Shown here piece after piece: positions 5,752-48,277 of a stretch of DNA of 49,280 nt. The position numbers were made by a program, and so were the translations under genes. Within the stretch, counting starts at the first letter, position 1. Each line of letters starts with the position of its first letter. The stretch is from UHGV virus genome UHGV-0151084; one strand, given 5' to 3'. The notes beneath the pieces were generated by a model. The model made no database searches, was not told the DNA's origin, and saw only the letters and a list, made by a program, of their open reading frames with translations. This stretch comes from a virus.

Positions 5752-8536
5752 AACTTAATCTCCGTTGTTGGAACATATGAGCACTCAATTTCTTCTCAAA
5801 ATCAGAATATCCCGCATCTAATGCTCTTTTAGCTGCCGCCTCAGTTTCCTTTGGTGAACCAGCCGGAAGATTGATTACAGGTGAATAGGTTATTCCACCA
5901 GTCACAGCATTAACGTTCTGGCGAGGTCCAGAAGTCCCGGCGGCAGATATCCCGTGAGGTGATAAATTTGATTGCCCGAACTTGGTTGCTATTGCATTCT
6001 GTAAGCTGTTATTCCTGCTAACACCTGATGCCAGAGTAGTCATTATTGCACCACCTGACTTTGTTAGCTGTGAGAATGGACCTTTTTTCGCGTCAGAGAA
6101 CGGTAAATACTCACGTACAGAAGAAAAAACGCCTTTCACTTCATTAATTAAAGCATTTGCTTTTGATTTTATCCCAGTGATTAACGTCTCAATTATTTTT
6201 GCGCCTGACTCACTCCAGTTTATTCCAGACAAATAAGCCGTTACAGATTGGAATGCTCTTATAAAGAGTCCAACTGGTGAAAAACGCATAAAAACAGATA
6301 CCAGTGTATCTATGATTTTCTTTCCTGTTTCGCTCCAGTTAATACCAGAAAGGTAATTTGTTGTAAGTTTAAATGCTTTAATTAAGAACGGAAGCGGAGA
6401 CATCCATTTAAAAGCACTAATTAATGTACTGTAAATTCTTACTCCTGCCGAACTCCAGTTTATGTTGGAAAGATAATCCCATGCTTTACCAAACATAGAT
6501 ATAATCCATCCATTGAGATCAAAGTTTAAGATAAAGTTTTTTATAGCTTCAAACGATTTAACTGTATATTCCTTAACAGAAGGCCAAACTCTGACAGCAT
6601 AATCTCTGATCTTATCCCAGTTCTGATAGAGCAATATTCCTGCGGCAACCAGCGCAGATATAGCCATCTGAATCCACCCGAAGGGTGTTAGCTTTGTCGC
6701 TACAGATAAAGCCAGCATAGCTACCCTACACGCTATAACCACACTTTTCATGGTTAGAAACGCACCTGCCGCCATCACAATCTGAGACACAAAATTGGGG
6801 TTGTTAGCTACAAATTCACTAATTTTTGTAATCAGCGGAACCAAAACACTAAGCGCGGCATTCAAAGCAGGTTGCAAGGCCTGACCAAAACTTAATGATG
6901 CATTGCTAGCCTGAATACGTAATTGTTTCAATCGCTCCGCATTGTCTTTCGTTATGTTGGCAAAATCGCGGTCAATAACAGCACTTCCAGCACCAAGAGA
7001 TGTTGCTTTGATTCTCTGGTATTCCTTCCAGTTTTGAATCATCGGACGAACAAAGTTCTGAACCTGCATATCGCCAAATAGCTCACCAAGTAACTTCTGA
7101 TCTCCGTTCTTAGTCATTTTCATGACAGAATGCATTGCAGCTTCGAATGGATTCTTCCCTTTTTTCTGCGCTGTTGTGACAATTTTATATAAATCTACAC
7201 CGAAATTTTTCTTTGCTTTTTTTAGGGTTTCAGGGGAAAGTATTTTCGCCAAAAAGTTGTTCATATTATTAGCAGCCTCATCCGAAGTTGCAGCACCTTT
7301 GCGAGCTATCTGCAAAGCTGCCCCCATCGTCGCGGCGGCTTCTTTACCTCCCATTTTTAATGCCTGGAACTGAGCACCAAGCACAGGAAGATTTTTGGCC
7401 ATATCTTTAAATTCAAAGTTTCCCTCTTTCCCTGCCTGAACCAGAATCCCCATTGCAGACTTCATTTGAGATGGATCAATCTTCAATGAGTCACTTAATG
7501 TAAATGATGCTTTCGAGACATCGAGGATATCAGAGCCAGTAGCTGTAGCTGTTCGCCCAATAGTTAGTAGATTCGCCTGAGCCTCTTTATAATCCTGCCC
7601 AGCAGCGACGAGAAAACCCTGAGCGGCCTGAATATCAGATGCAAACTGGTTGGTGGCCGTTCCGGTAACAAGCATCGCCTGCCCCATCGCCTGAACTTCT
7701 TCCGGCTTCATATCTGCCGTAAGACCAATCATTTTGTTTTCACGATTGAAATTTGCTGCATTGTTAGCAGCAGCAAATGCACCAGCCGCTACAGCACCAG
7801 TTTGTAATCCTGACCTTACAAGTTGACTCTTTGCCTCACCAAGATGCTCTCGCTTCAATTCACGCTGCCTTTCCAACGCGCGGTTTAACTCCTCCTGAGC
7901 ACGTTTTACTGCAAGAACATTTTTCCGTGCTTCAGCCAACGCATTTTTATAGCTGTTAATTTTATCAATACGTTGTTTTTCTAATGCCCGGTTAAGTTCC
8001 TCCTGCTGTTTTTTCACTTGCTGAACATTTGCTCTGGCTAAAGCCAAAGCCGTTCTGTAGCGGTTAACCTGCTCAACGCTACGGACCTGAGCCTCACGAT
8101 TACGATCAATGCTGGCTTTAAGCTCTTTCTCTCTTGAGGCCAAAGCTCTGGCAGATGTATCAGCTCCCTGATAGGCAGACTTTAAAGCGGCCAGTTCTTC
8201 ACGCTGAGAACGTAGTGATGCTCGTAAATTCGATGAATGTGTTTTTGCCTTCTCAAAGTCACGAAGCATCGCTCTGGTTGGATTGGCCGTGTTTTTTATT
8301 TGCTTCTGTAACTCTTCAACGCGAGCGGCAGCTTTATGATATTCGAGGGCAGTCTGTCCAACCTTTACTTTTACAGATTGTAGCTTTTGAATTTCCCCAT
8401 GTTCTTTCGTTAATCCAGCAAGCTCGGCATTTAATTTAGCAACAGCCTGATTAGCTGTAGTAAAACTTTTGGGGAGAGAGGCGGCAACTTTGCCGCCAAT
8501 TTCAAAAGCCAGCTTAAAGTTCTTATTGCTGGCCAT
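5744..8536 (-). CDS. Tail tape measure protein
   Basis: 930 aa; long coiled-coil N-terminal half (repeated QEELNRALE-type heptads), hydrophobic segments, repeated SGINWSE motifs; follows chaperone frameshift pair. Confidence 0.85.
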   Translation of the reverse strand: MASNKNFKLAFEIGGKVAASLPKSFTTANQAVAKLNAELAGLTKEHGEIQKLQSVKVKVGQTALEYHKAAARVEELQKQIKNTANPTRAMLRDFEKAKTHSSNLRASLRSQREELAALKSAYQGADTSARALASREKELKASIDRNREAQVRSVEQVNRYRTALALARANVQQVKKQQEELNRALEKQRIDKINSYKNALAEARKNVLAVKRAQEELNRALERQRELKREHLGEAKSQLVRSGLQTGAVAAGAFAAANNAANFNRENKMIGLTADMKPEEVQAMGQAMLVTGTATNQFASDIQAAQGFLVAAGQDYKEAQANLLTIGRTATATGSDILDVSKASFTLSDSLKIDPSQMKSAMGILVQAGKEGNFEFKDMAKNLPVLGAQFQALKMGGKEAAATMGAALQIARKGAATSDEAANNMNNFLAKILSPETLKKAKKNFGVDLYKIVTTAQKKGKNPFEAAMHSVMKMTKNGDQKLLGELFGDMQVQNFVRPMIQNWKEYQRIKATSLGAGSAVIDRDFANITKDNAERLKQLRIQASNASLSFGQALQPALNAALSVLVPLITKISEFVANNPNFVSQIVMAAGAFLTMKSVVIACRVAMLALSVATKLTPFGWIQMAISALVAAGILLYQNWDKIRDYAVRVWPSVKEYTVKSFEAIKNFILNFDLNGWIISMFGKAWDYLSNINWSSAGVRIYSTLISAFKWMSPLPFLIKAFKLTTNYLSGINWSETGKKIIDTLVSVFMRFSPVGLFIRAFQSVTAYLSGINWSESGAKIIETLITGIKSKANALINEVKGVFSSVREYLPFSDAKKGPFSQLTKSGGAIMTTLASGVSRNNSLQNAIATKFGQSNLSPHGISAAGTSGPRQNVNAVTGGITYSPVINLPAGSPKETEAAAKRALDAGYSDFEKKLSAHMFQQRRLSFG

Positions 8537-9519: not shown

Positions 9520-10983
9520 TTATTCAGAAAACAAGTTCAGCAGATAATCAGGATTATATTCCATGACGAACTCTATATCTCTGGCAGGTGAGAATGGTGT
9601 CATTTTTACATGGAATTTAACAATCCCGTCCATCAATGACGTAATCGTGTTTTCAGACTGATCAAAGGTAACAACACCACCTGCAATATCCTGATTACCT
9701 GTGAGGCCGTTAAGCCAAATATTCGCACTTGTAACAATCGATTCAATTAATCGACGGTTTGCAGGATTGTCTATTTTTGACCAATGCGAAAGAATTAACG
9801 TATTACCCACCCAGTTAAACATACGTCGGCAAACACGAAATGCGTCTTTGGGGTCTGTAGATGTTGGATAAATAGCATTACGGTTTCCCCATGATTTCCA
9901 ACCATCAAAATTAAGGCTTGTTACAATCCCCTGACCATTTAAGTAGTTTGCCTGGCTAATGTTAAGCCATACTTCACTGCCATCTTTACGTACAGCACCG
10001 TCCATCTGTAGTTTTATATTTGACGGAGAACGTGATGGAATATCACCATACTGACTATCCAGCAAGCATGTTGCGGCCGCTAAATGGGTTGAGTGATGGT
10101 AAATATTGTCACCAAGTTTCACCATCGGCCAGCACACTGTCTGGTTAGCGGCCATGTGATTATTGTTCTGTTTCCATTCAGGAACAGCCGAGTAATCACT
10201 GATAGTAGATTTATCGGTCGGTGCATCAGTTATGGCTTCTGCTTTGAACAATTCACTAATCAACGCGGCTTTAGCCGCCATTAGCTGACCAACTTCACTA
10301 TCAGAACTAAATCCAGGCGCAATCACTTGTCCAGGAACCAACTTGAAGCGGGGATACACATCAGACAGTAACTCAAGCCCTGTATTGGCTTTAGTGTTGG
10401 AATCCACACCACCGATAATGTCATTTTTAGTTACGGCACCGGGATCAAGATGCGTATAACTAACCTTAAGAGTAGCGTCTTTTTCGGTAATTTTTCCTCC
10501 GCTAATAGCGGTAATGACCGTATAGCCATTATCATCCAGCGCCAGCACATAATCGGTATCAACCGTTAACCCTGGCGAATCACCATCTGCTTTTTTCACA
10601 ACAACAGATTTATATAAGACACCATCGTTAGAGAGCGTACCTTTCCCGCCAGAAAGTTTTACTACCTCATCAGTTACGTCTTTCTTATGCTTTGCTGGAT
10701 CAAGCACATTGATAAATACAACTGGCGCAACACCATATATTCCAAATGCGACTTTAATTACTTCGCTTAAAGTATATTTCTCGAAGTTTGTGCTATATCC
10801 TATTTTAGATACGGCCTCTGCGTATGTATAAGCAATGATAGGTTTATTTACTGCTGAGGCTGGATCTTCTAACTGATTAACAGGAGCTGTACCAAATGCG
10901 ACAATCAACCCAGCACTAACTTGTACTGGAGGAGTTATAGATGTAGCCAGCTCAGATATATAAATACCGTGGCGATATCCCAT
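9520..10983 (-). CDS. Tail sheath protein (FI-like)
   Basis: 487 aa ORF upstream of tube gene; size and order typical of contractile sheath. Confidence 0.8.
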   Translation of the reverse strand: MGYRHGIYISELATSITPPVQVSAGLIVAFGTAPVNQLEDPASAVNKPIIAYTYAEAVSKIGYSTNFEKYTLSEVIKVAFGIYGVAPVVFINVLDPAKHKKDVTDEVVKLSGGKGTLSNDGVLYKSVVVKKADGDSPGLTVDTDYVLALDDNGYTVITAISGGKITEKDATLKVSYTHLDPGAVTKNDIIGGVDSNTKANTGLELLSDVYPRFKLVPGQVIAPGFSSDSEVGQLMAAKAALISELFKAEAITDAPTDKSTISDYSAVPEWKQNNNHMAANQTVCWPMVKLGDNIYHHSTHLAAATCLLDSQYGDIPSRSPSNIKLQMDGAVRKDGSEVWLNISQANYLNGQGIVTSLNFDGWKSWGNRNAIYPTSTDPKDAFRVCRRMFNWVGNTLILSHWSKIDNPANRRLIESIVTSANIWLNGLTGNQDIAGGVVTFDQSENTITSLMDGIVKFHVKMTPFSPARDIEFVMEYNPDYLLNLFSE

Positions 10984-24731: not shown

Positions 24732-24997
24732 TCATCATCTCCTGCCGCACATACAACCTCACAAAAAACATCAGCGGAATGTTTCTTTTTGAATGAATGG
24801 CGCTCAAAACCGCACTCAATATCAGGCGCAAAAACATCCACCACATACGGTCTTTCAGAATGTTTGTTTTCCCAACGATAAACCGTAGTGACGTTGAAAT
24901 GTTTTAACGCTTCACGGAACTCAACGCTGCCCGTCAGGTTTTTTGAGGTCAGGTATTGCAGGAGGCTTTTTACTACTTCACGGTCTTGTACTTTCAT
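24728..24997 (-). CDS. Hypothetical protein, first gene behind copy 1 of the repeated promoter module
   Basis: 89 aa ORF; ATG preceded by GGAGATAACCCG as in the two other module copies. Confidence 0.45.
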   Translation of the reverse strand: MKVQDREVVKSLLQYLTSKNLTGSVEFREALKHFNVTTVYRWENKHSERPYVVDVFAPDIECGFERHSFKKKHSADVFCEVVCAAGDDE

Positions 24998-25115
24998 CGG
25001 GTTATCTCCGGTTTAGCCAGGGCGGGTATCGCTCGGTTTCGGGTATAACCATAGGAAATTTTTTCCCACCTGTAAAGCAATTTTTATATAAATATATAAT
25101 TATATAATTCTATGC
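24998..25115 (-). promoter_or_regulatory. Repeated promoter/leader module, copy 1
   Basis: About 105 bp near-identical to 32517..32640 and 42106..42225; contains TTTACA, AT-rich palindrome and conserved leader ending in RBS. Confidence 0.6.
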
Positions 25116-25697
25116 CACTTGCCAGAGAGCATCATGCAACTGGATACCTCCATTGCACTGGTTGCCCCAGCCATGCCAGCCATCAGGTAAATCACCGCGA
25201 GCAAACAGCTCAATACGGGGAACATCACCTAACAGCCTTACCAGCTTGTCACGAACCACATCAGGCTTCCGAGAATGCTCCAGACGAGGCGATGTAAACG
25301 ACTGAATGATCCCCGCATCAAGGCGGGTCGGCAGTTTGCCTTTTACCGCAAACAAGCAATCTTCACTGTTTGCACGAGTCATATGCCCCATCCCCATCAC
25401 CAGCTTATCTGGTTGTCGGCTACCACATTTGTTCCATGTGAAGCCCTTCATGGTCATCAGCCTGAATCCCCATGCTTTCACCACCAGCAACGCTTCTTCT
25501 GGCTGAGTCGGAACCCACCACATGGCCAACAAACACGATTCAGGATTAGCAAGCTGCCAGACAGGAATACGAGCAATATCCTCAGCTTTCATCGTTGGAT
25601 ACTTAAAACCAGCGCCACGATTCCCATCCTTACACTTGTCTTTGTATTCCCAGGGGGGATCTGCATAAATCAGATTAAACAATGCAATTGCCTCCAT
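25110..25697 (-). CDS. MT-A70 family N6-adenine DNA methyltransferase
   Basis: 195 aa; catalytic DPPW motif (LIYADPPWEY). Confidence 0.8.
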   Translation of the reverse strand: MEAIALFNLIYADPPWEYKDKCKDGNRGAGFKYPTMKAEDIARIPVWQLANPESCLLAMWWVPTQPEEALLVVKAWGFRLMTMKGFTWNKCGSRQPDKLVMGMGHMTRANSEDCLFAVKGKLPTRLDAGIIQSFTSPRLEHSRKPDVVRDKLVRLLGDVPRIELFARGDLPDGWHGWGNQCNGGIQLHDALWQVA

Positions 25698-26016
25698 GTT
25701 AGTTGTGTCTCCGGCGCTTATCTCCGGCAGTCATAACGCTGGCCAGCTCTACAGCAAACACAACGAAAAGGGCACTAACCAGACTGATTAATGCCCTTGC
25801 CTGTTGTGTGCCGGATATCGCCCGACAACGCTGTTTTGGTAACACGGCTACAGTTCCGTGCCGCTCCAGCTTTTACCCCTTTGCGGATAACAGGCCCTGC
25901 CTGTAACTTAGCCCCACGTTCGCCCGAAATGCGCACCAGGCACGCATAAAGATGAGCATAAAGATGAGCACGAAGAAGTAACTCCACCGCGCTTATCTTT
26001 ATGTGTGAGAGTGAAT

Positions 26017-26092
26017 TGGTGGCCCCTACCGGATTTGAACCGATGACCGTGCGATTATGAGTCGCCTGCTCTAACCACTGAGCTAAGGGGCC
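26017..26092 (-). tRNA. tRNA with anticodon CAU (tRNA-Ile2 / Met-type), CCA encoded
   Basis: Minus-strand 76 nt GGCCCCTTAGCTCAGTGGTTAGAGCAGGCGACTCATAATCGC...GGGGCCACCA folds as cloverleaf; acceptor, D and anticodon arms match the enterobacterial tRNA-Ile2 pattern as I recall it. Confidence 0.85.
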
Positions 26093-26261
26093 ATATTTGA
26101 TTTGTTTGTCTGGTGTGGCGCCGCGCACGAAAATCCCAGCCAATAAATTCAGGATTTTTGGGCGCGGCGGCATATCAGACAAACATGGTTGATGCGTGCG
26201 CCCATGAGAAAAGCGCATAGAATGTTGTAACTATATATTTATATAATTATAGAAATATATA

Positions 26262-26471
26262 TTACTTTCGGCAGTTGATTTCCCATGCCCTGTTATGAGC
26301 CAGAATATCTTTCTTTGTCTGGCGGTCCATAACATCGATGTCGTGATCAGTCAGGTAGATGGGCTTTACCCAATCACAGGCGGTATCAACCACCACCGGG
26401 ACGCTTCCACGACTCCCGCAGCTCGCGATCAACATCGTCATCAGCCATATGGTTAACACTCTGCTGTACAT
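26262..26471 (-). CDS. Outer-membrane spanin (Rz1-like lipoprotein)
   Basis: 69 aa with signal peptide and lipobox-like LIASC; overlaps the 3' part of the i-spanin in another frame. Confidence 0.6.
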   Translation of the reverse strand: MYSRVLTIWLMTMLIASCGSRGSVPVVVDTACDWVKPIYLTDHDIDVMDRQTKKDILAHNRAWEINCRK

Positions 26472-31093: not shown

Positions 31094-31392
31094 GCCACAG
31101 CCCCTCTCAACGGCTTAACTTTGGCTAATAAGGTGTTAAACAACATGGAGTTAGGATTCATGCCAAATGGCAATTCCGGTTTAGCGGAGTAGTACAGGCA
31201 ACCATTTATTTTCCTGGTTGTTATCTGTCCTTCGGCAACCATGCTTCTCAGTCTGCAACGCATAGAGTTCTGCGACACACCAATGTGCTCCGCGATTACG
31301 TCCACTTTTGAACATGGGTGATCGGTCAGGAAATTAATCACATCTTGGGGGTTAATAATTTTGCGTTTCATTGTCGAGGCGTCCTTATACAT
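31090..31392 (-). CDS. Putative winged-helix DNA-binding protein
   Basis: 100 aa; HTH-like segment VDVIAEHIGVSQNSMRCRLRSMVAEGQI. Confidence 0.45.
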   Translation of the reverse strand: MYKDASTMKRKIINPQDVINFLTDHPCSKVDVIAEHIGVSQNSMRCRLRSMVAEGQITTRKINGCLYYSAKPELPFGMNPNSMLFNTLLAKVKPLRGAVA

Positions 31393-31448
31393 TTATATAA
31401 ATATATAATTCTATATACGGCGGGAGACATCCCGCCGTAGGCTTACTG

Positions 31449-32516: not shown

Positions 32517-32640
32517 CAGATTTCTCCGGTTTAACCAGGGCGGGTATCGCTCGGTTTCGGGTATAACCTTAGGAAATTTTTTCCCACCTGTAAAGCACTT
32601 TTTATATAAATCTATAATTATATATTTATAGATTTTCGAT
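32517..32640 (-). promoter_or_regulatory. Repeated promoter/leader module, copy 2 (directly downstream of Q-like gene)
   Basis: Near-identical to copies at 24998..25115 and 42106..42225. Confidence 0.6.
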
Positions 32641-35055: not shown

Positions 35056-35173
35056 ACCACGATATGTGGTATTAAAACCACATATCGTGAGTTTTTCAAT
35101 GGGCGAAACAAAAAATAACCTTCTATTTGTGGTCCACCTCTCGTCTTACCATGTGAAAACCACTAAATGTGGT
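35056..35173. promoter_or_regulatory. Immunity operator cluster (ACCAC-N5-GTGGT sites at 35056-35070, 35077-35091, 35159-35173)
   Basis: Three 15-bp inverted-repeat sites in the divergent Cro-like / CI-like intergenic region. Confidence 0.65.
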
Positions 35174-35210
35174 AATGTATAAATAACCCACCATTCACGA
35201 TTGATGAGAC

Positions 35211-35867
35211 ATGAAAAGCAACGACGAGAACATCAAGAAAGAAATAGGTCTGCGCATTCAGACTCTACGGAAACAATCCGGCATGACTGCCGGAGATCTC
35301 CAGCAAGTCACTGGAATAGGCTTAAGCACCTTGCAGAACTATGAGGCCGGATTAAGACAACCATCTATACCTGCCATCAAGAAAATCGCGCACGCCCTGA
35401 AAGCATCAGCGCCTTATATCGCGTGCTTAACAGATAACCCGTTCCCACCCCAGAATACTAACGCTCCTGTTATTCCTGGGCTTGTAGCTATAAAAAATGA
35501 CATAGCATCGCACGCCGGAGAAAAGCCAGTGCTGGCGATAGAACAGGAGATTCTACGAAGCAAGAACATCAACCCATCGTCTCTGTCAGTTCTCCAGAGC
35601 AACGATGAGTTAATGTCACCAACAATATCCCCTGGCTCCCAAGTCCTGATTGATACAGACGATACAGAGATTCATGAGGGGATCTATGCCCTTGAAGACA
35701 GAAATGGCCTGGTTGTTTTGAGGCACTGTAGAGTCATACCGGGTGACAATGCTGTTATGCTGTCAACCGAAAGGGATGCTGAAATGAACACTAAGCATCT
35801 GAATAACGAGGAATTTAAGCGTTATAAAGTTCTTGGCCGCGTAGTTAGTGTTGTCAACTGGTTATGA
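35211..35867 (+). CDS. CI-like repressor (XRE HTH + S24 LexA-like peptidase domain)
   Basis: 218 aa; N-terminal HTH (LQQVTGIGLSTLQNYEAG), C-terminal S24-like region. Confidence 0.8.
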   Translation: MKSNDENIKKEIGLRIQTLRKQSGMTAGDLQQVTGIGLSTLQNYEAGLRQPSIPAIKKIAHALKASAPYIACLTDNPFPPQNTNAPVIPGLVAIKNDIASHAGEKPVLAIEQEILRSKNINPSSLSVLQSNDELMSPTISPGSQVLIDTDDTEIHEGIYALEDRNGLVVLRHCRVIPGDNAVMLSTERDAEMNTKHLNNEEFKRYKVLGRVVSVVNWL

Positions 35868-35959: not shown

Positions 35960-36334
35960 ATGGAATTACATACAGCCAATAAAAACGAAACTCTGATCAC
36001 TGCTGGAATCGAAATCCAAGCGTTGAACATAGCGATTGAGTGTATGTTATGCCAAATCATTGATAATGAAAAAGATATCGACTGGATAGAATCTATCCTT
36101 CATCTGGCATCAGAACAAAAAGTCTGCCTCAAAACGGCCTTACAATACGATGTGCCAGCGGTATCGAAGCTGTGCCAGCCATTGATGGCATATAACAGGG
36201 CTATTATTTCTGTATGCCTCATGATTCTTGATGAAAACACCCCTCTTAGCGACCGCTCAGAAGCTGCTCTAACACTCTCACGTAAACAGCGACAGCTAGC
36301 AAATCAACTGATATCAACGATAGCTGACCTCTGA
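35960..36334 (+). CDS. Hypothetical protein
   Basis: 124 aa ORF with AAGAGG RBS. Confidence 0.4.
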   Translation: MELHTANKNETLITAGIEIQALNIAIECMLCQIIDNEKDIDWIESILHLASEQKVCLKTALQYDVPAVSKLCQPLMAYNRAIISVCLMILDENTPLSDRSEAALTLSRKQRQLANQLISTIADL

Positions 36335-36364
36335 CTGAAAGCGGGCTAACGCCCGCTTATATGA

Positions 36365-36460
36365 TTATAGATTTATATAATTATATAAAACGCTTTTCAT
36401 CCGCCAAAAAGTTGGTTATGCTTACCTCGTTCTATAAATATAGATTTATATAATTATATA
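36365..36460. repeat. AT-rich iterons (ATAGATTTATATAATTATATAA x2) upstream of parA; candidate partition site / operator
   Basis: Two copies at 36365-36390 and 36431-36460; a third between parA and the ParG-like gene at 37141-37170. Confidence 0.5.
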
Positions 36461-36484
36461 ACCAAACACATGGAGTCTCGACAA

Positions 36485-37138
36485 ATGACTATCTCTGTAG
36501 GTATTTTCAACGGAAAAGGCGGCGTAACCAAATCAACAATTGCCCGTGCTTTAGCAGTTGCTTATGCAAAGGCCGGCTGGAATGTATGCCTGATCGATAT
36601 GGATGTGCTTAACGGAACGGTAACGCGTTGGGTACAACGCAGAATGGCCAACAATATCGAACCTGCAATCGCGGCGCAGCCGTGCGGCACGCCATCACAA
36701 GTCCAGAAAATCATCGAATCAGAAGTATACGACCTGGTTATCGTCGATGGCGGTGCCTACGCATCTGAATCAGTACCGAAGCTCTCTGAATTTCTGGATA
36801 TGGTTATTTTGCCAACCAGATTCTCTACCGATGACCTGGAAACCACCGTTAACACAGCTCATGGCATCGTTAAAAAGGGTGTGCCAATCAAGAAAATTTG
36901 CATGGTGTTCTCAGGCGCGGCTGAAAACGAAGCCGACTACATTGAAGCCCAAGAGTACCTGGCTAATACGCCATACTTTGTTGTCGATAAGTACATTCCC
37001 CACAAGCCAGCTCTGAGCAAAGCTCAGGATAAGGGCTTAAGCCTCATTGAATGCTCATACGTTGCGCCACGCAAAAAGGCAGACGACGTTATTCAGGGGA
37101 TTATCAACCAGCTTGAGGCTCTGACTACTGCCGCGTAA
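36485..37138 (+). CDS. parA: ParA-family partition ATPase (small, type Ib-like)
   Basis: Deviant Walker A GKGGVTKST; start placed at ATG 36485 with GGAG RBS. Confidence 0.8.
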   Translation: MTISVGIFNGKGGVTKSTIARALAVAYAKAGWNVCLIDMDVLNGTVTRWVQRRMANNIEPAIAAQPCGTPSQVQKIIESEVYDLVIVDGGAYASESVPKLSEFLDMVILPTRFSTDDLETTVNTAHGIVKKGVPIKKICMVFSGAAENEADYIEAQEYLANTPYFVVDKYIPHKPALSKAQDKGLSLIECSYVAPRKKADDVIQGIINQLEALTTAA

Positions 37139-37181
37139 TATATAATTATAGTTTTATAGATTTATATAAGAGGGGATACAC

Positions 37182-37430
37182 ATGGCCGCACCATCAAAAC
37201 CACCAAAGAAGAACAGCAAAGGCGTACCGCCATCGATCGAACAACCGCAGGTTTTCGACCCGACTGAAACGCCAGCCAGAACCAAATCAGGTGGGGCACA
37301 AATGGCGTTTAACGTCGACCCTGAATTTAAACGCGAGTACAAAACGTTCGCCAGCTCAATGGATATGTCATTGAAAGAAGTGCTGACAAAATCTTTTGAG
37401 TTACTCAAGGCTCAATACAACCAGAAGTAA
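37182..37430 (+). CDS. ParG-like ribbon-helix-helix partition protein
   Basis: 82 aa, basic disordered N-terminus and C-terminal RHH-like segment, directly after parA. Confidence 0.5.
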   Translation: MAAPSKPPKKNSKGVPPSIEQPQVFDPTETPARTKSGGAQMAFNVDPEFKREYKTFASSMDMSLKEVLTKSFELLKAQYNQK

Positions 37431-37652: not shown

Positions 37653-37676
37653 AAAAAAGGCCCCCGAAGGGGCCTA
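37653..37676. terminator. Hairpin terminator (GGCCCC-CGAA-GGGGCC) with A/T runs
   Basis: Perfect 6-bp GC stem; T-run on minus strand. Confidence 0.55.
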
Positions 37677-38096
37677 ATCGCTACTTGCTGCTAATGTTTA
37701 TCGTCACATTCAGAGCGTTATCAGTAATCTTCCAACCCTCCCCATGTGGCGTAAACAAAGCTCCAGTAACAACGATAAAAATACACATACAGTATTTTTT
37801 CATTGTATGGCCCTTACAGGCCGTTTCACGGCATCCCCACCGACGAAAACAACGCGAGAGCAAGCACGGCTGCTTGTGCTTGCATGTACGGCAACAGGAA
37901 ATCCTCCCCTAAAGTCGGTGCCCGGGTGCGAATCGGCGGGAAGGTCCACAGGTATTTTACGATTATTTTAAGATTAGTAATAGGAAAGAAATTAAACGAA
38001 AAAAACAGTTTATTTTCACAAAATCAGTAACCTACCCACAATCTGTGAGTTTGCTGACACAACAAGAACCACAATTTTTTGATGTATAATAGTGGA

Positions 38097-38227
38097 CTAT
38101 TATTACCTTTTGAGTAAAATCAATTTGCTGCTTGTGCTTGCGTGGTTGTTTATACAACAACGTAATGCTGAAAGGACCGCGAATCCGATCAGCACGAAAG
38201 AACCGTCCTCAATAGGGCGGTTTTTTT
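38097..38227 (+). ncRNA. Candidate small RNA (extended -10 promoter TGTATAAT at 38083-38090 to terminator at 38199-38227)
   Basis: Promoter-like element followed about 110 nt later by hairpin AACCGUCCU/AGGGCGGUU plus U7; no ORF. Confidence 0.35.
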
Positions 38228-38291
38228 GTTTCTGCCTACCAATAAACCCACGCTATGTGGTTGTCTCTGTTAAAATCCCGCCGTATTGACA

Positions 38292-38396
38292 TGAATGCGC
38301 CATTGGTGGACACTTTCCGAGCCGTAGCAAAATCTACGGTCGGGATTAGCCTCCTGAATAACACGATGGCGCATACCGCGTTAGCGGTTTTTTTAT
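38292..38396 (+). ncRNA. Candidate structured RNA upstream of antirepressor operon
   Basis: TTGAC at 38286, internal hairpin CCGTAG/CTACGG, terminator ACCGC-GTTA-GCGGT + T7; shares GATTAGCCTC with the downstream leader. Confidence 0.3.
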
Positions 38397-38556
38397 GCGT
38401 AGAGCACTGTTACGCCCAAATTATGGTGGGTCGTACAGGGGCGGAGAAATCCGCGCCGGTTCGTCATTGTGTCCGGTAAGGCTAACCCTGTACGGCTCAC
38501 CACCATTTGATTAGCCTCGAATGGCGGTGATAGTTCCATATACTGGAGATATCACA

Positions 38557-38748
38557 ATGACAAACCTACCCCATGACTATTACGTCAACCTCGTAAAGAT
38601 CCTTCTCAAGAAAGCCTCATACGCCGATAAATTCCGCCTGGCTGAAATCATCGAGCGCGAAGCTATGCGCATCGCCAGCAACGATAACGCTGTTTCTGAC
38701 GCAAAAATCTCCCTCGTAACCAAAGTAGTTATGGGAGGTGCAAAATGA
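38557..38748 (+). CDS. Small protein translationally coupled to antirepressor
   Basis: ATG 38557 with GGAG RBS; stop overlaps antirepressor start (ATGA). Confidence 0.4.
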   Translation: MTNLPHDYYVNLVKILLKKASYADKFRLAEIIEREAMRIASNDNAVSDAKISLVTKVVMGGAK

Positions 38749-40013
38749 AAACGCTTCCGACCGTTAACACCCTACAGCCTATCCTGCATAACCAAATCCC
38801 TGTCATTACTACCGAGTTACTGGCACAGCTTTACGGCGTATCTCCTGTACGCATTCGACAAAATCATCATGAGAATAAGGAACGCTTCATTGAAGGTAAG
38901 CACTACTTCAAAATTGAAGGTAACGAACTTCGAGAGTTAAAGCACAAAGTGACTCAAGATAATGATGTGAAGAACAAAAACTCTTTAAGAGATTCAGTTA
39001 ATGACGCCCCCTCTAAAAGAGAGAGCGACGAGCACAGAGTAGTTTTAAACTACTCTGTTAACCACAAGGTAACTAAAAGTCACTCTGTGAAAATCGCCCG
39101 TAACGTTCGCTCCCTCATTCTCTGGACAGAACGCGGGGCTGCACGTCACGCCAAAATGCTTGAAACTAACCAAGCGTGGGATGTGTTCGAACGGCTGGAA
39201 GACTGCTACTTCAACCAGAACGCGCAAACGGCCGCGACCGTAACCGTCTCGCCAAACAATGCTCGTGAGGTTGTCGATACGCTCAACGCCAAACCGATGT
39301 TTTACATTAAGGTGTGCAATAACGAGCCACTCACAACCTCGGCCGATGTTGCCCAGGCATTCAGCACCACAAACAATTCCATCGTTATGGCCATCGATGC
39401 GTTACGCATTCCTCGCACAGCTGCGGCGCGTCATTTCTTTAAAGAGCAACGACCGTTGGAAGGAAGCGACCGCGAAATAACAATCTATCGCATGACAAAA
39501 GACGGATTTACCTTGCTCATGGAGAGCATCGACGGTCCAGGCGTAAAAGATATCAAGCTGGCCTACATTGAAGCCTTTAACGCTATCAGCAGCGTGTTAA
39601 AAACACAGTACGAGCGTGATCTGGCTAAACGACTGTACCAAGAAAAAACGATTATCCGCGCGGCAACAGAGCATAATCGGCTATTAACGGAACCGAACTA
39701 CCGCAAGACACTAATCAAAGAGTTTGACAAGGCGACGGAGAAAACTAAAGCGGCGCTAAGTCTGCCAGCAATGACTCAGGAAAATGTGATATCAGCCTTA
39801 CTTCTTGATCTGCTCAGGAACGCCAGAGCACTTATCAGCTTTGACGAGGACCTGAATCCTCAGCTCAAGCTACTACCACCGACAGGCAAAGTAGTCGACC
39901 AGGCTGATCACAACAGCATACTCAGCGTTCTGGATGCAAACCTGCCAGCCAGGACACTACAGGATCTGATAAAAACATGTGCTGATAAGCTGGCACAGAA
40001 AAGCAGACCATAA
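38745..40013 (+). CDS. Antirepressor (ORF6N-type N-terminal + Rha-type C-terminal domains)
   Basis: 422 aa; N-terminal IPVITTELLAQLYGVSPVRIRQNHHENKERFIEGKHYFKIEG; central TTSADVAQAF...TIYRMTKDGFTLLM resembles Rha. Confidence 0.7.
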   Translation: MKTLPTVNTLQPILHNQIPVITTELLAQLYGVSPVRIRQNHHENKERFIEGKHYFKIEGNELRELKHKVTQDNDVKNKNSLRDSVNDAPSKRESDEHRVVLNYSVNHKVTKSHSVKIARNVRSLILWTERGAARHAKMLETNQAWDVFERLEDCYFNQNAQTAATVTVSPNNAREVVDTLNAKPMFYIKVCNNEPLTTSADVAQAFSTTNNSIVMAIDALRIPRTAAARHFFKEQRPLEGSDREITIYRMTKDGFTLLMESIDGPGVKDIKLAYIEAFNAISSVLKTQYERDLAKRLYQEKTIIRAATEHNRLLTEPNYRKTLIKEFDKATEKTKAALSLPAMTQENVISALLLDLLRNARALISFDEDLNPQLKLLPPTGKVVDQADHNSILSVLDANLPARTLQDLIKTCADKLAQKSRP

Positions 40014-41724: not shown

Positions 41725-42105
41725 TTACTTAACGAGGAATAAAAATGGTTTATTGTTCGGCGGTGTAATCGGGGCTGGCTCGCTTTTGCTCATGCGATCA
41801 GTGTACCAGGCCAACTCCTTGTCAAAGTAAGCCTGATTAAAATAGGCCATGAATGTAGTTTCAAATCCATAACGACCGCTAATACGCAGCATCTGATTGC
41901 CGTTCTCTGTTTCCAGATATACCTGGGCACGTTCCTGATTCTCCTTCAGCCAGGTTAAAGCCTCATCGCATGAGGACACACGATACTCATCATCGTAGCA
42001 GTCATCGATGCGGCTTGAGGAAGAACGGCAAATCACGCCAACAGAACCAGCCAGGATAGTTTGAATTTTAAGGAAAGCGTTTTTGCGGATTTTAATCATG
42101 CTCAT
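41725..42105 (-). CDS. Hypothetical protein, gene behind copy 3 of the repeated promoter module
   Basis: 126 aa; N-terminal hydrophobic signal-like segment. Confidence 0.45.
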   Translation of the reverse strand: MSMIKIRKNAFLKIQTILAGSVGVICRSSSSRIDDCYDDEYRVSSCDEALTWLKENQERAQVYLETENGNQMLRISGRYGFETTFMAYFNQAYFDKELAWYTDRMSKSEPAPITPPNNKPFLFLVK

Positions 42106-42225
42106 CGGGTTATCTCCGGTTTAACCAGGGCGGGTATCGCTCGGTTTCGGGTATAACCTTAGGAAATTTTTTCCCACATGTAAAGCACTTTTTATATAAA
42201 TCTATAATTATATAATTCTGTGAGC
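42106..42225 (-). promoter_or_regulatory. Repeated promoter/leader module, copy 3
   Basis: Near-identical to copies 1 and 2; preceded upstream by a terminator at 42227-42254. Confidence 0.6.
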
Positions 42226-42268: not shown

Positions 42269-42568
42269 TCAGATGTTAAACGCTATTCGTTTTCCTGTGG
42301 GAAGCTCAACATCCAGGCTTAATTTGCCTCCCATAGCTTCAACGTAACGCTTTAATGTCGCCAGCTTTAAATCATTTCCGCGCTGCTCCAGCTTTGTTAC
42401 TGCTGGCTGGCTTATACCCATCGCCTCAGCAACCTGTTTTTGTGATAACTGGAGTTCTTCACGCATCATCTGCAAGCCGACCTCAAGAATCATCTCATCT
42501 GCCATTTCTTTAATTCGCGCCTGGCTTTCCGGTGAACGGCTGGCAATCGCCTCATCTAATGTTCTCAT
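42269..42568 (-). CDS. higA: HigA-like HTH antitoxin
   Basis: 99 aa; HTH (LSQKQVAEAMGISQPAVTKLE); start overlaps toxin stop. Confidence 0.65.
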   Translation of the reverse strand: MRTLDEAIASRSPESQARIKEMADEMILEVGLQMMREELQLSQKQVAEAMGISQPAVTKLEQRGNDLKLATLKRYVEAMGGKLSLDVELPTGKRIAFNI

Positions 42569-42921
42569 TACTTGCTCTCCAGTGTGTTCAGATGTGCTGC
42601 AAACTCATCCTCAGCTATACGCACCAGTTTTTCATAAAACCGCTTATCGTTACTTTTGTCTCCTGCACAAAGAACGATGGCCCGGCGAATCGGATCGAAC
42701 GCATAAAAGGCTCTTATCGGACGGCCAGAAAACTGAACGCGAAGCTCTTTCATATTTTTGTACCGAGAACCTTTTACGGTATCGGCATATGGCCTAGGTA
42801 ACTCAGGTCCGTAAACCTGTAGCTTTTTCAAATCAGCCAAAACCTTTTCCTGAAGAGCGTCTTCTTGCTCATTTAGCCAGTCGTCAAATCGCTGGCTAAA
42901 AAGTACCGTCCACATGCTCAA
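42568..42921 (-). CDS. higB: HigB/RelE-family toxin (addiction-module killer)
   Basis: 117 aa; toxin-upstream-of-antitoxin arrangement; C-terminal region resembles RelE/ParE-superfamily killers. Confidence 0.65.
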   Translation of the reverse strand: MSMWTVLFSQRFDDWLNEQEDALQEKVLADLKKLQVYGPELPRPYADTVKGSRYKNMKELRVQFSGRPIRAFYAFDPIRRAIVLCAGDKSNDKRFYEKLVRIAEDEFAAHLNTLESK

Positions 42922-44377: not shown

Positions 44378-45226
44378 TTAATGTTGGAGTGATTTCCAAG
44401 TCTTTCTTAACCTGTTATAACGCTGCTCAACGAGGGATCGTAAATATGCAAGGTCAGCTCCAGGATACATGCCATCAGCAAATTCCTGGCTAACCTCTCT
44501 AGTGATTTGATGACGAAGTTCGGCCTCTCCCTTTTCCCGAACAAGACGCGCAGCTCTCTCCGCTGCTTTCTGTTTTGCCTTTATCTCTCTGGCCGTCTTC
44601 CTCTGACGCCATACATTCTCCATCTGCTCCTGAATAACAATACGCTTATAATCAGCCTCCGTTATCGCTTTTTTAAGCCGTTCGCTATTCTTCGCATTGA
44701 AGTAATTAAGTTTCTGGCTAACCGCACGTCTCCATGCTTGTTCAGTAATACCAACGGTTTCCAGCAGTTGATCACGAATCTCTATTTTCGCTGGCCAATA
44801 CTGTTTATTCACCCGATCCCAGCGACGTTCATAATCAATAAAACCTAACGCTTTCAGTTGCGACAACGCCCTTGTACAGCGCGTTATAGACTTGTTCCCA
44901 GCTTCGGATACGGTAGACAGACCGCAAAAATCAGCCAACGCCTCAGCACTGGCCAGAACCCGCTTAGAAATGATGTTTACATGGTGCAAAATCGCAGCAA
45001 TCACAGCATTAATCGCCCGACGACGATGCTCGTTTATCCGGCGTTTCCGCTCTGACGGTTGATTAACGTAGAACGCAACCTCACACGTAAGATCACGACC
45101 ATTAATGCGCTGTAAAGCATCAGATAACACCAGCGGCAGCTTGTGCGTATGGTGCTTTGGAGGCTGGAACTCCGGCGACAAATTACAAACGTAAGCTGAA
45201 CGTAGAGACGGCATTGGTCTATCCAT
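44378..45226 (-). CDS. repA: Replication initiator RepA, IncFII (RepFIIA)-type
   Basis: Central region LSTVSEAGNKSITRCTRALSQLKALGFIDYE aligns with IncFII RepA1 (LATESAAGKLSITRATRALTFLSELGLITYQ); start placed at internal ATG 45226. Confidence 0.8.
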   Translation of the reverse strand: MDRPMPSLRSAYVCNLSPEFQPPKHHTHKLPLVLSDALQRINGRDLTCEVAFYVNQPSERKRRINEHRRRAINAVIAAILHHVNIISKRVLASAEALADFCGLSTVSEAGNKSITRCTRALSQLKALGFIDYERRWDRVNKQYWPAKIEIRDQLLETVGITEQAWRRAVSQKLNYFNAKNSERLKKAITEADYKRIVIQEQMENVWRQRKTAREIKAKQKAAERAARLVREKGEAELRHQITREVSQEFADGMYPGADLAYLRSLVEQRYNRLRKTWKSLQH

Positions 45227-45241
45227 ATGTTCGCTCTTGCG

Positions 45242-45348
45242 TCCACGGAAAACCAACGTATAATGGGAGTTGTCGAGGCGCCCATGGTTAATTGTTGGTT
45301 TTCCGTGGATGTCGCAAGAAGCCCGCAGATTTATCTGCGGGCTTTTTG
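45242..45348 (+). ncRNA. Candidate CopA-like antisense RNA in repA leader
   Basis: Plus strand: perfect 16-bp inverted repeat (45242-45257 / 45294-45309) then terminator GCCCGCAGAT/ATCTGCGGGC + T5, antisense to the repA 5' region. Confidence 0.45.
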
Positions 45349-45536
45349 TTTCCATATCTGGTCGCTTTCCAACCAGACACCCACAATCATAACCACGTTA
45401 CGTGGTTTTAAGAGAACTCTACCACAACACTTTCGGTCATGCACGAAGTCTCTCACTGATCGAACGATAATCCACCAGTAAAAGGATCTAAATTGGATCT
45501 CGTTTTGCGAGCATCATACTACTGGCCTAACTCCAG

Positions 45537-46091
45537 TCAATGATTCCCAGCCGGAAACCTGCGGTAAAGCGTGGATAAGGTAACATCGAAGATAATCGCT
45601 ATCCGCTTACGTGAAACACCATTCGCAATAAGCCTTCCGATCTGTTCCCATTGCTCTGGGGCCAATTTTGAGCGGCGTCCTCCTATCCTGCCATTAGCCC
45701 TTGCCACCGCCAATCCTGCACGCGTTCTTTCAATCATATTTTCCCGCTCCATCTCTGCGACTGCACTCAGCATCGTGTAGGCAAAGCGGCCAATTGAAGT
45801 GCTAATTTTTATCCCTTCCGTAATCGAAATAAACTCAATGTTGTTTGATAAAAAATGGTTAAGTAAATCAACAAGATGAATCAGAGAACGCCCCATTCGA
45901 TCCAGCTTCCAGACAATAACCGTATCGCCCGGCCGTAACACCTTCAGTAGCTTATCAAGCCCTGGTCGTTTTGATTTAGCACCGGATATTTTATCTTCAA
46001 AAATCCGGTCACATCCTGAACTCCTGAGCGCCTCCAGTTGTAATTCCAAATTCTGGTCAAAAGTTGACACCCTCGCATAACCATATTGCAT
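45537..46091 (-). CDS. Serine DNA invertase, Gin/Cin/Hin family
   Basis: 184 aa; YARVSTFDQ catalytic-serine motif, C-terminal HTH; 64 bp from gix-like site B. Confidence 0.85.
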   Translation of the reverse strand: MQYGYARVSTFDQNLELQLEALRSSGCDRIFEDKISGAKSKRPGLDKLLKVLRPGDTVIVWKLDRMGRSLIHLVDLLNHFLSNNIEFISITEGIKISTSIGRFAYTMLSAVAEMERENMIERTRAGLAVARANGRIGGRRSKLAPEQWEQIGRLIANGVSRKRIAIIFDVTLSTLYRRFPAGNH

Positions 46092-46119
46092 ACTTTCTAA
46101 ACCGCGATTGTTGCTAAAA

Positions 46120-46194
46120 GCGGGAAAAAATATCGTTCAGACGACACAGAGGCAATTCGCAAAAACCTCGGTTTACAGGAAACGGTAAACAAGG
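46120..46194. repeat. Left arm of inverted repeat flanking invertible tail-fibre cassettes
   Basis: 75 bp with 2 mismatches to the reverse complement of 49206-49280. Confidence 0.8.
46156..46181. other. gix-like recombination site B (TTCGCAAAAACCTCGGTTTACAGGAA)
   Basis: Inverted relative to sites A and C. Confidence 0.6.
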
Positions 46195-46205
46195 CTGGTA
46201 ACGCC

Positions 46206-47186
46206 GTGCAAAAGACAGGCGATACCTTGTCCGGTGGACTTACTTTTGAAAACGACTCAATCCTTGCCTGGATTCGGAATACTGACTGGGCAAAGATTGG
46301 ATTTAAAAATGATGCCGACAGCGACACTGATTCATACATGTGGTTTGAAACAGGCGACAACGGCAATGAATATTTCAAATGGAGAAGCAAACAAAGCACC
46401 ACAACAAAAGACCTGATGAATCTTAAATGGGATGCTTTGTATGTTCTTGTCAATGCCATTGTAAATGGCGAAGTCATATCAAAATCAGCAAACGGCCTAC
46501 GTATTGCTTATGGTAATTACGGATTCTTTATTCGTAATGATGGTTCAAATACATACTTCATGTTGACAAACTCCGGTGACAACATGGGGACTTATAACGG
46601 ATTAAGGCCATTATGGATTAATAACGCTACTGGCGCTGTTTCGATGGGGCGTGGCCTTAATGTTTCAGGGGAGACACTTTCAGACCGTTTTGCTATTAAC
46701 AGCAGTAATGGTATGTGGATTCAGATGCGCGATAACAACGCTATCTTTGGGAAAAATATAGTTAACACTGATAGCGCTCAGGCGTTGCTTCGCCAGAATC
46801 ACGCCGACCGAAAGTTCATGATAGGTGGACTGGGGAACAAGCAATTTGGCATCTACATGATTAATAACTCAAGGACAGCCAATGGCACCGATGGTCAGGC
46901 GTACATGGATAATAACGGGAACTGGCTTTGCGGCTCGCAAGTTATTCCCGGAAACTATGGCAATTTTGACTCCAGATATGTGAAAGATGTTCGACTTGGT
47001 TCACAGCAATATTATGGAGTGAACAACTGGCAAACATGGAATTTCCAGTGCCCGTCAGGTCATGTATTGTCTGGTATTAATGTTCAGGATACAGGGTCCA
47101 ACTCTGCCGATAATATAGCGGGCGTTTATTACAGACCCGTTCAAAAGTATATAAATGGCACCTGGTATAATGTAGCGAGCGTTTAA
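46206..47186 (+). CDS. Tail fibre variable C-terminal cassette (Sv'-like), currently not joined to the constant region
   Basis: Frame is open from 46101 through site B; first residues [15 protein letters not shown] identical to the end of the constant gene at the window start. Confidence 0.75.
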
Positions 47187-47187
47187 T

Positions 47188-47715
47188 ATGATGCACTTAA
47201 AGAACATAAAAGCGGGTAACGCTAAAACACTGGAACAGTATGAGTTAACAAAGAAACACGGAGTTATCTGGCTTTACTCTGAGGACGGAAAAAACTGGTA
47301 TGAGGAAGTGAAAAACTTTCAGTCAGACACAATAAAGATTGTTTACGATGCAAATAATATTATTGTCGCCATCACTAAAGATGCCTCCACGCTTAACCCT
47401 GAAGGTTTTAGCGTCGTTGAGGTTCCAGATATTACAGCCAACCGCCGCGCTGATGATTCAGGAAAGTGGATGTTTAAGGATGGAGCTGTAGTTAAACGGA
47501 TTTATACGGCAGACGAACAGCAACAACAAGCCGAATCACAAAAGGCCGCATTGCTTTCCGAAGCTGAATCAGTCATCCAGCCGCTGGAACGCGCTGTCAG
47601 GCTGAATATGGCAACAGACGAGGAACGCACACGACTGGAAACATGGGAACGCTACAGTGTTCTGGTCAGCCGTGTGGATACGGCAAATCCTGAATGGCCA
47701 CAAAAGCCTGAGTAA
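47188..47715 (+). CDS. Tail fibre assembly protein (Tfa, U'-like)
   Basis: 175 aa; conserved Tfa pattern (NWYEE...[14 protein letters not shown]...KWMFKDG). Confidence 0.8.
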
Positions 47716-47721
47716 AAATTA

Positions 47722-47740
47722 AGGCCCGATATCGGGCCTT
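47722..47740. terminator. Bidirectional hairpin between convergent Tfa genes
   Basis: AGGCCCGATATCGGGCCT palindrome. Confidence 0.5.
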
Positions 47741-47743
47741 CTC

Positions 47744-48277
47744 TCATTCTGGTTGTTCGGGAAACGTTACTGGCAGGCTGGAGGTGTCTGTGGATTCGAC
47801 TTTCTGCGCGTAGAGCATCCACTCGGTTAATTTTTGTTTATTCTCGTCGGAAATGATGCCCAGCCGTAGCTGTGAGTCCCATAGCTGGGTTTTATCCCTG
47901 ACAAGTTGCAACAGGCTTTGCTTTTCATTCTCTGCCTGCTGCCTCTGTTCCTCCTCGGTATAAGTTCGCTTTATCACTACGCCATCTTTGAACATCCATT
48001 TACCCGAAATATCAGCCCGGCGATTTGCTGTAATATCAGGTAATTCAACGACGCTTGCGCCTTCTGGATTAATTGCTGAAACATCCTTTTCAATACAAAT
48101 AATAACGCCGTTGTGGTCATAGACCATTTTCAACGTATCAGGCTGAAAGTTCTTTTGTTCCTCATACCAGTTTTCCCCATCCTCTGTATAAAGCCATTTG
48201 ATGTTAAATTGTTTCGTTAGCTGGTATTGCTCTTTTGTTTTAGGGTTGCCAGCAGTAATATTTTTTAAGTGCATCAT
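47744..48277 (-). CDS. Tail fibre assembly protein (Tfa, U-like)
   Basis: 177 aa paralog of 47188..47715. Confidence 0.8.
   Translation of the reverse strand: MMHLKNITAGNPKTKEQYQLTKQFNIKWLYTEDGENWYEEQKNFQPDTLKMVYDHNGVIICIEKDVSAINPEGASVVELPDITANRRADISGKWMFKDGVVIKRTYTEEEQRQQAENEKQSLLQLVRDKTQLWDSQLRLGIISDENKQKLTEWMLYAQKVESTDTSSLPVTFPEQPE

Follow-up and report, generated by a model that had tools for sequence, protein, structure and literature searches.

The partition (par) locus described here lies in UHGV-0151084, a virus genome of 49,280 nucleotides (the window; all coordinates refer to this whole stretch) that constitutes an essentially complete E. coli phage-plasmid of about 49 kb. The locus consists of a parA gene and, directly downstream, a gene for an 82-amino-acid (aa) protein with a predicted ribbon-helix-helix (RHH) domain, together with short repeat arrays around both genes. 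Exactly eight such arrays are found in the window, each 32 bp long and composed of four tandem 8-bp units, with three at the par genes and five at other promoters. They are read here, with a probability of about 0.7 based on sequence and comparative analysis, as the cognate sites of the 82-aa protein, which would be the centromere-binding protein of a type Ib partition system; the par arrays would serve as centromere and operator, and the dispersed ones as operators and/or extra centromeres. The par locus has the following features:

36340-36357, plus strand: terminator-like hairpin AGCGGGC-TAAC-GCCCGCT, directly 5' of array E1
36358-36389: array E1, TATATGAT TATAGATT TATATAAT TATATAAA
36394-36422, plus strand: predicted parA promoter, TTTTCA, 17-bp spacer, TATGCT (consensus match only)
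36431-36462: array E2, TCTATAAA TATAGATT TATATAAT TATATAAC
36485-37138, plus strand: parA, encoding a 217-aa Walker-type ParA without an N-terminal DNA-binding helix-turn-helix (HTH) domain
37139-37170: array F, TATATAAT TATAGTTT TATAGATT TATATAAG
37182-37430, plus strand: gene of the 82-aa ParG-like protein

Array E1 starts where the upstream gene's terminator stops and leaves 4 bp to the predicted parA -35 element, and E2 lies between the predicted -10 element and the parA ribosome-binding site (RBS), which is an operator-like position. The predicted promoter sits between these two arrays. An earlier reading made from the letters alone (the sequence-only reading) had described them as two tandem copies upstream of parA, but they are 41 bp apart and flank the promoter-like sequence. 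Array F occupies the gap from the parA stop codon to the RBS of the RHH gene, bringing the number of boxes at par to 12 (E1, E2, and F). For comparison, nine loci encoding diverged members of the RHH family were used (L011 to L019), giving ten lineages with the window. A TTTACA-17-TAnnnT equivalent of the promoter lies between the two par arrays in eight of these nine loci, and the terminator-then-array order of E1 recurs in L011, L012, L013, L015, and L016.

The unit consensus is TATATAAT, with a TATA box first and a 4-bp A/T spacer after it, and the composition of successive positions over the 32 units is T (32), A (26) or C (6), T (32), A (31), T (25) or G (6), A (28), W, and T (20). Since TATA is self-complementary, an array looks the same on both strands; the AT-rich palindrome of the sequence-only reading is indeed AT-rich, but its palindromic character is secondary to the tandem array of four 8-bp units. 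All eight sites that it listed are present, their bounds now refined to 32 bp each, and the scan against shuffled sequence that it proposed returned 25 and 21 matches to its two cores, with 1.8 and 0.3 expected. A period of 8 was called by Tandem Repeats Finder at all eight sites, and the identity autocorrelation has its maxima at lags 8 (0.74) and 16 (0.71). The pattern TATA-N4-TATA-N4-TATA-N4-TATA with at most two mismatches has 18 overlapping matches, all within the eight sites, against 0.03 in dinucleotide shuffles. Local AT content, the explanation that would have undone the motif, is insufficient to account for the arrays, which stay non-random in three kinds of control. When each 32-bp array was shuffled against itself, the observed number of in-phase TATA boxes was reached in 0-13 of 20000 trials at seven sites and in 154 of 20000 at array G; 60-bp block shuffles of the whole window gave approximately 0.4 par-like sites against the eight observed; and a three-unit weight-matrix scan returned exactly the eight sites and no others, with none in 20 local shuffles. 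A solitary site of two TATA units (TGTAGATT TATATAAA; 7184-7199, minus strand) was also seen inside a 930-aa tail gene, with an exact 13-mer match to TAGATTTATATAA; it may be due to chance, as the weight-matrix null gives 0-4 such sites.

The ParA protein has the size of type Ib members (about 200-220 aa). It matches the Pfam CbiA/ParA/MipZ entry, the NCBIfam ParA_partition model (below its cut-off), and PHROG 164; it is annotated as ParA in relatives, and its matches to ParF (4dzz) and ParA (5u1g) reach E=3e-4, indicating a distant relation to ParF. In the 82-aa protein, residues 1-40 form a basic, disordered tail that carries the conserved motif K-G-x-P-P, and residues 41-80 are predicted to fold as an RHH domain. 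Queried alone, this protein gave no match in the Pfam, NCBIfam, and PDB sequence searches; it belongs to PHROG 6024, of which the function is not known and the annotation is only hypothetical; the RHH family that it represents was previously unannotated. Only relatives of at least 80% identity were recovered by a word-index homologue search, while an exhaustive profile search yielded 103 remote relatives of 74-90 aa. Among 80 of these, Pfam assigned RHH_10 to 43, Antitox_RHH to 23, and ParG to five (weakly, with a best E of 2.7e-4). The profile of the relatives aligns in register with RHH domains in the PDB, namely 56B (E=0.08) and ParG 1P94 (E=0.13), and hhalign of the family against ParG gives 68.7%; a match to MCR, obtained with a profile of close homologues against the PDB, was set aside as spurious.

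Structure prediction gave a similar picture. A first AlphaFold (AF2) model from a shallow alignment had a predicted local distance difference test (pLDDT) score of 65, and its Foldseek search returned noise only. With a deep alignment, the pLDDT exceeds 90 at residues 41-80, where two helices follow a short extended segment, and the tail (1-40) has low confidence; the top 14 Foldseek matches in the PDB are then all RHH proteins (PutA, CdbA, CopG, AmrZ, Arc, and ParD), with target template modelling (TM) scores of 0.64-0.85. The 82-aa protein is accordingly predicted to have a ParG-like fold and architecture, and it is at most a remote relative of the ParG sequence family (Pfam PF09274), to which it has no significant match. 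The K-G-x-P-P motif of the tail is the only hint of ParA ATPase stimulation or plasmid stabilisation. Judged from sequence and modelling, a ParA with a downstream flexible-tailed RHH protein and promoter-flanking arrays is a type Ib ParA/RHH partition locus.

The five dispersed arrays are spread over 17 kb at other transcription units, three of them on copies of a promoter cassette:

24998-25084, minus strand: type I cassette A, TTTACA 25076-25071, 17-bp spacer, TATGGT 25053-25048, leader, RBS
25085-25116: array A, TATATAAA TATATAAT TATATAAT TCTATGCC, at the upstream end of minus-strand cassette A
26017-26092, minus strand: tRNA-Met (CAT anticodon), approximately 140 bp downstream of array B
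26232-26263: array B, TATATATT TATATAAT TATAGAAA TATATATT, between the Rz-like spanin gene and tRNA-Met
31386-31417: array C, TATACATT TATATAAA TATATAAT TCTATATA
32517-32602, minus strand: type I cassette D, TTTACA 32594-32589, 17-bp spacer, TAAGGT 32571-32566, leader, RBS
32603-32634: array D, TATATAAA TCTATAAT TATATATT TATAGATT, at the upstream end of minus-strand cassette D
42106-42192, minus strand: type I cassette G, TTTACA 42184-42179, 17-bp spacer, TAAGGT 42161-42156, leader, RBS
42193-42224: array G, TATATAAA TCTATAAT TATATAAT TCTGTGAG, with a degenerate fourth unit

Two placement classes can be distinguished, type I (A, D, and G), in which the array lies upstream of a promoter cassette, and type II (E2, C, and F), in which it abuts an RBS. 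The type I cassette of about 120 bp occurs in three copies, all on the minus strand, and runs from the array through AAAAAGTGC, TTTACA, a 17-bp spacer, TA(A/T)GGT, and a leader of about 50 nucleotides to AAACCGGAGATAACCCGATG. Cassette A precedes an 89-aa gene (PHROG 6143; ATG at 24997), cassette D a DUF3560/primase-like gene (ATG at 32516), and cassette G a 126-aa gene (PHROG 8090; ATG at 42105). Array E1 stands to the predicted parA promoter as the type I arrays stand to theirs. All sites had been called intergenic, but array A runs up to or into the stop codon of the MT-A70 methylase gene; array G lies just 3' of a minus-strand terminator (42254-42232), at the upstream end of its cassette. 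On the minus strand at C, the terminator hairpin of the DUF3560 gene (31438-31417) is followed by the array, by AAGGACGCCTCGACAATG, and then by the gene running from 31371 to 31090; the leader and RBS of C, ...CTCGACAA(A)TG, are shared with E2 at parA. A 147-aa open reading frame (ORF; 25775-26218) overlapping tRNA-Met near array B is probably spurious. In cassettes A, D, and G, and also in those of L015, L016, and L017, an inverted repeat (T)AGGAAA-N3-TTTCCTA lies between -35 and -10 and overlaps the -10 element. It is conserved whatever the type of the array, and so looks like the operator of a second regulator; the cassette leader and RBS (…AAACCGGAGATAACCCGATG) are likewise conserved.

Arrays are found at equal par positions in the related loci, in the order terminator, array 1, -35/-10, array 2, RBS, and parA, often with another array before the RHH gene. 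Despite this constant position, the box differs by lineage (TTTAAA, TCTTTA, AATTCTTT, AACGA, AGCGA, or TACA/TGTA):

L011: array unit TCTTTAAA / TATTTAAA
L012: array units TCTTTAAA and ATTTCTTT
L013: array unit TACA / TGTA
L014: array units AWTAACGA plus ATTTCTTT
L016 (Serratia pJSRIV006_2): array unit TATTTAAA, beta-strand PMNFNM
L017: array unit TCTTTAAW
L018: array unit AGCGA / TCGCT
L019: perfect AATTCTTT repeated three to four times at three par positions

The RHH proteins of these eight loci are 38-48% identical to that of the window. The ninth, L015 (Salmonella pAR-0407-1), has a par region of 79.5% nucleotide identity and an RHH protein of 91% identity, with the beta-strand QMSFNV against QMAFNV in the window; it retains all eight TATA arrays at homologous positions, and the outer flanks have diverged. 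The beta-strand and the box were found to be paired across lineages, with QM[A/S]FNV accompanying TATA, [ML]NFN[VM] accompanying TTTAAA/TCTTTA, and NFKV accompanying AACGA, AGCGA, and AATTCTTT. The dispersed arrays of L012, L016, L017, and L019 are of the type of their own par arrays, with up to 20/20 identity to them. For instance, L012 has eight TCTTTAAA-type arrays within 14 kb; L016 has four dispersed arrays at 20/20 identity to its par arrays, three on cassettes homologous to type I and one of type II; the conserved core TGCTTTACAGGTAGG... promoter of L017 is fused to a TCTTTA-type array; and L019 has a single dispersed AATTCTTT array. L016 and L017 keep the conserved core promoter cassette; what follows the local type is only the array joined to it. 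Probes from the window find eight sites in the window, eight in L015, two in L016, and one in L012, while probes from L016 find seven sites in L016, eight in L012, and four in the window; these own and foreign counts confirm two clearly separate specificity groups. L014 lies in a non-phage, conjugative-plasmid context and has only ParA and the RHH protein in common with the window; its six 8-bp arrays are all at par, with none dispersed within 20 kb. The comparative data indicate that the arrays belong to the ParA/RHH module, that par and dispersed arrays are recognised by the same factor, and that arrays dispersed onto promoter cassettes characterise the phage-plasmid lineages. Two further observations concern L012: its par region has no match in PLSDB, and a LexA-box-like TACTGGATAAATAAACAGTA (approximately 10370-10395) lies upstream of an S24/UmuD-like gene, which follows the RHH gene and a dispersed array.

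The closest model is the type Ib ParF-ParG system of the E. coli plasmid TP228, in which one ParG dimer binds each ACTC tetramer box, with 4-bp AT-rich spacers, and the boxes are grouped into the operator OF (eight) and parH (12); each of these blocks can serve as a centromere, and partial activity remains with four boxes (PMC3130281). The window shares with it a small ParA, a small RHH partner encoded downstream whose N-terminal tail is disordered, 4-bp boxes with 4-bp AT-rich spacers in an 8-bp period, and arrays placed upstream of or over the operon promoter, where the repeats of TP228 serve as both centromere and auto-operator (PMC3130281). It differs in that its box is the self-complementary TATA instead of ACTC, its par region has 12 boxes in three blocks of four instead of 20 contiguous ones, five additional four-box arrays are dispersed, the host element is a phage-plasmid, and its protein lacks the PF09274 match of ParG. 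Another centromere-binding RHH protein, omega of pSM19035, has three parS arrays that overlap three different promoters; it couples partition with transcriptional control of plasmid functions, and the number of repeats tunes its affinity (PMC5016525). As with omega, the arrays of the window lie at several separate operons (A, B, C, D, G, and par) and adjoin -35 matches or RBSs. Unlike this Gram-positive (Firmicutes) plasmid system, with its 7-bp heptads at 7-10 per site, the window has four 8-bp units per site, and the targets are phage-plasmid operons that include a thrice-repeated promoter cassette and a tRNA; omega was absent from the sequence and fold matches of the 82-aa protein.

The phage-plasmid N15 has four separate centromere sites, IR1-4 (PMC7205306, citing Ravin and Lane, 1999). 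Dispersal of the sites over the genome of a phage-plasmid is the only common feature, as N15 has a type Ia system with a large SopA, an HTH-type SopB, and inverted repeats of about 16 bp, in contrast to the small ParA, RHH partner, and tandem arrays of the window, where three of the eight arrays also stay at the par operon. Operators at many promoters of their own replicon are likewise known for KorB of RK2, a plasmid-maintenance protein with its OB sites, and for ArtA of pSK41, an RHH global plasmid regulator. KorB differs in being an HTH ParB that acts at a distance from 13-bp palindromes, ArtA is not a centromere-binding protein, and neither is from a phage. MetJ is a further RHH protein whose dimers bind tandem sites at 8-bp intervals. 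A literature search for regulation of a phage-plasmid by an RHH partition protein found no paper. The system is a variant of the ParG, omega, and N15 kinds, with an RHH family not annotated before and with arrays distributed over the genome as interchangeable modules.

By analogy with ParG of TP228, each TATA box would take up the beta-ribbon of one RHH dimer in its major groove, the 4-bp spacers would set a centre-to-centre distance of 8 bp, and four dimers would coat the 32-bp array cooperatively. At par, E1, E2, and F would nucleate the partition complex and thus form the centromere, with ParA recruited and stimulated through the basic N-terminal tail, and would also act as the operator for autorepression of the parA-RHH operon. 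At A, D, and G, the complex would stand at about -40 to -70 and might limit the access of RNA polymerase or UP-type contacts, whereas at C, B, and F it would stand immediately before a gene (a tRNA at B), after a terminator or gene end. Through the dispersed arrays, the RHH protein would modulate, and most probably repress, scattered operons in the plasmid state, and these arrays may also give extra centromere points. The proposal of a partition site and operator at par, with one protein acting on the dispersed sites, thus gains support from the RHH prediction, the ParG-like geometry, and the covariation of boxes and proteins. Binding of the arrays by the RHH protein appears quite probable, and regulation of transcription by the dispersed copies has slightly better than an even chance.

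Several points weigh against reading the arrays as RHH sites with a regulatory role. The promoter assignments are consensus matches of only 8-9 of 12 positions, and a generic promoter scan gave no enrichment over shuffles and found only cassette A among the array-linked promoters; the calls are trusted because the same -35/17/-10 layout recurs in the L015, L016, and L017 cassettes as well as at eight of the nine related par loci. Arrays upstream of a -35 element could equally mean activation, masking of UP elements, or no regulatory role. The lack of an own Pfam match and the marginal similarity to ParG count against the protein assignment, as do Foldseek E-values of at least 0.3, the domain being tiny. 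The periodicity of the TTTAAA-type lineages and of L013 is a multiple of 4 and not a clean 8. Other proteins, among them the CI-like repressor and a 124-aa protein encoded beside par, also diverge between lineages, and covariation alone therefore cannot single out the RHH protein; only L014 and the type Ib precedent do so. The literature search found no paper on this element. The genes and sites concerned lie just upstream of parA:

35058-35175: three ACCAC-N5-GTGGT palindromes, where the CI-like gene and the minus-strand early operon diverge
35211-35867: CI-like HTH/S24 repressor
35960-36334: 124-aa gene, PHROG 7632 (function not known), between the CI-like gene and parA

It is unlikely that the dispersed copies, although bound by the RHH protein, are purely extra centromeres that regulate nothing and come near promoters only through the non-coding space available there. 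The four separate centromere sites of N15, the partial centromere activity of four boxes in TP228, and the scarcity of intergenic space in the window genome would all agree with such a role, but the placement is stereotyped (A, D, G, and E1 end 5-8 bp from the -35 element, and C, E2, and F abut the RBS), array and promoter are conserved together as one cassette across genera in which only the array has been exchanged, and the non-phage L014 has par-clustered arrays alone. These stereotyped junctions with the -35 element or RBS, together with the omega precedent, make regulation more likely than a purely centromeric role. Recognition of the arrays by another protein of the element, with the RHH protein recognising other DNA, is very improbable. 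The 124-aa protein would be a candidate, as its gene is syntenic with parA in all phage-plasmid relatives examined and diverges together with the arrays, but it is absent from the non-phage plasmid L014, which also lacks a CI-like gene and yet has six 8-bp arrays around parA-RHH. The sequence-only reading had named both the ParG-like and the CI-like protein as candidates; the former is favoured by the predicted RHH domain and the covariation, and the latter is disfavoured because it has three separate operators of its own, the ACCAC-N5-GTGGT palindromes, which are likely CI/Cro-type operators. A small HTH protein was considered too, but RHH dimers such as ParG typically bind tandem sites of 8-bp period, which are unusual for HTH dimers, and repeat scans of the par locus found no alternative repeat family able to serve as a centromere.

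The arrays might also be independent of any protein of the element, or serve a host factor, as UP elements, TATAAT-like -10 strings, curved DNA, or sites for IHF, Fis, or H-NS. Their A/T-only composition with many TATAAT-like hexamers and their location just upstream of -35, where UP elements act, would fit this, but equivalent arrays in the same or related enterobacterial hosts use AACGA, AGCGA, or TCTTTA, which are not -10-like and do not fit one factor; the boxes keep a strict 8-bp phase and always number about four, and the arrays resemble the par arrays of their own genome and not those of other genomes, leaving this explanation hardly credible. A simple palindrome, CI operators, -10/UP elements, and chance AT-richness were all rejected as readings of the motif. 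Within the preferred assignment of the arrays to the RHH protein, a more far-reaching version can be drawn, in which the plasmid-prophage state has the partition protein as its master switch. Four-dimer complexes would then gate the three-copy promoter cassette and the boundaries of the early, lysis, and late blocks, so that assembly of the partition complex and the silencing or insulation of phage operons would be a single structure. With 32 boxes per genome copy, replication after induction would titrate the RHH protein and derepress the operons as a copy-number timer, and the arrays would be swappable specificity modules, exchanged along with the beta-strand of the RHH protein on at least five occasions in the family. 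Taken whole, with gating, timer, and swapping, this version is doubtful.

In addition to par, the window contains a minus-strand myovirus structural module, lysis genes, and the MT-A70 methylase gene, as well as the following features:

42269-42568: HTH antitoxin of a HigBA-like toxin-antitoxin pair
42568-42921: Gp49-family toxin of the same pair
44378-45355, minus strand: IncFII-type (IncFII-family) RepA

The region 44378-48277 comprises RepA and a Cin/Hin-like serine invertase (45537-46091) next to pairs of tail-fibre and tail-fibre-assembly genes in opposite orientations, which suggests an invertible host-range (tail-fibre) segment. The non-coding stretch 3' of the par operon has Rfam matches to a ryfA-like RNA (37653-37949, minus strand), isrK (38321-38394), and C4 antisense RNA (38419-38507). 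These RNAs (37653-38507) precede an icd-like ORF and an ORF6N/Rha antirepressor (38521-40013), and this region of c4/isrK RNA, icd, and ant resembles the immI-like module of P1. In PLSDB, 62 complete plasmids of 44-52 kb match the window at 95-99% identity (E. coli, E. fergusonii, E. albertii, Salmonella, and Klebsiella), and so do three phages of Yersinia (vB_YpM_39, 41, and 44), with no identity value given for them here; nothing was found on these phages in the literature. The hosts of the element include clinical and animal E. coli, Salmonella, and Klebsiella. The plasmid pSLy3 was rejected as a member of the family, being an SSU5-supergroup element.

The assignment proposed here gives a function and DNA sites to the PHROG 6024 family and predicts a set of operons under the control of a partition protein. 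If true, it would concretely connect, in phage-plasmids, the maintenance of the plasmid with the expression of phage genes. The ten lineages, whose boxes differ and whose beta-strands change to match, offer a natural series for the DNA-recognition code of RHH proteins, and they could supply orthogonal repressor/operator or centromere pairs.

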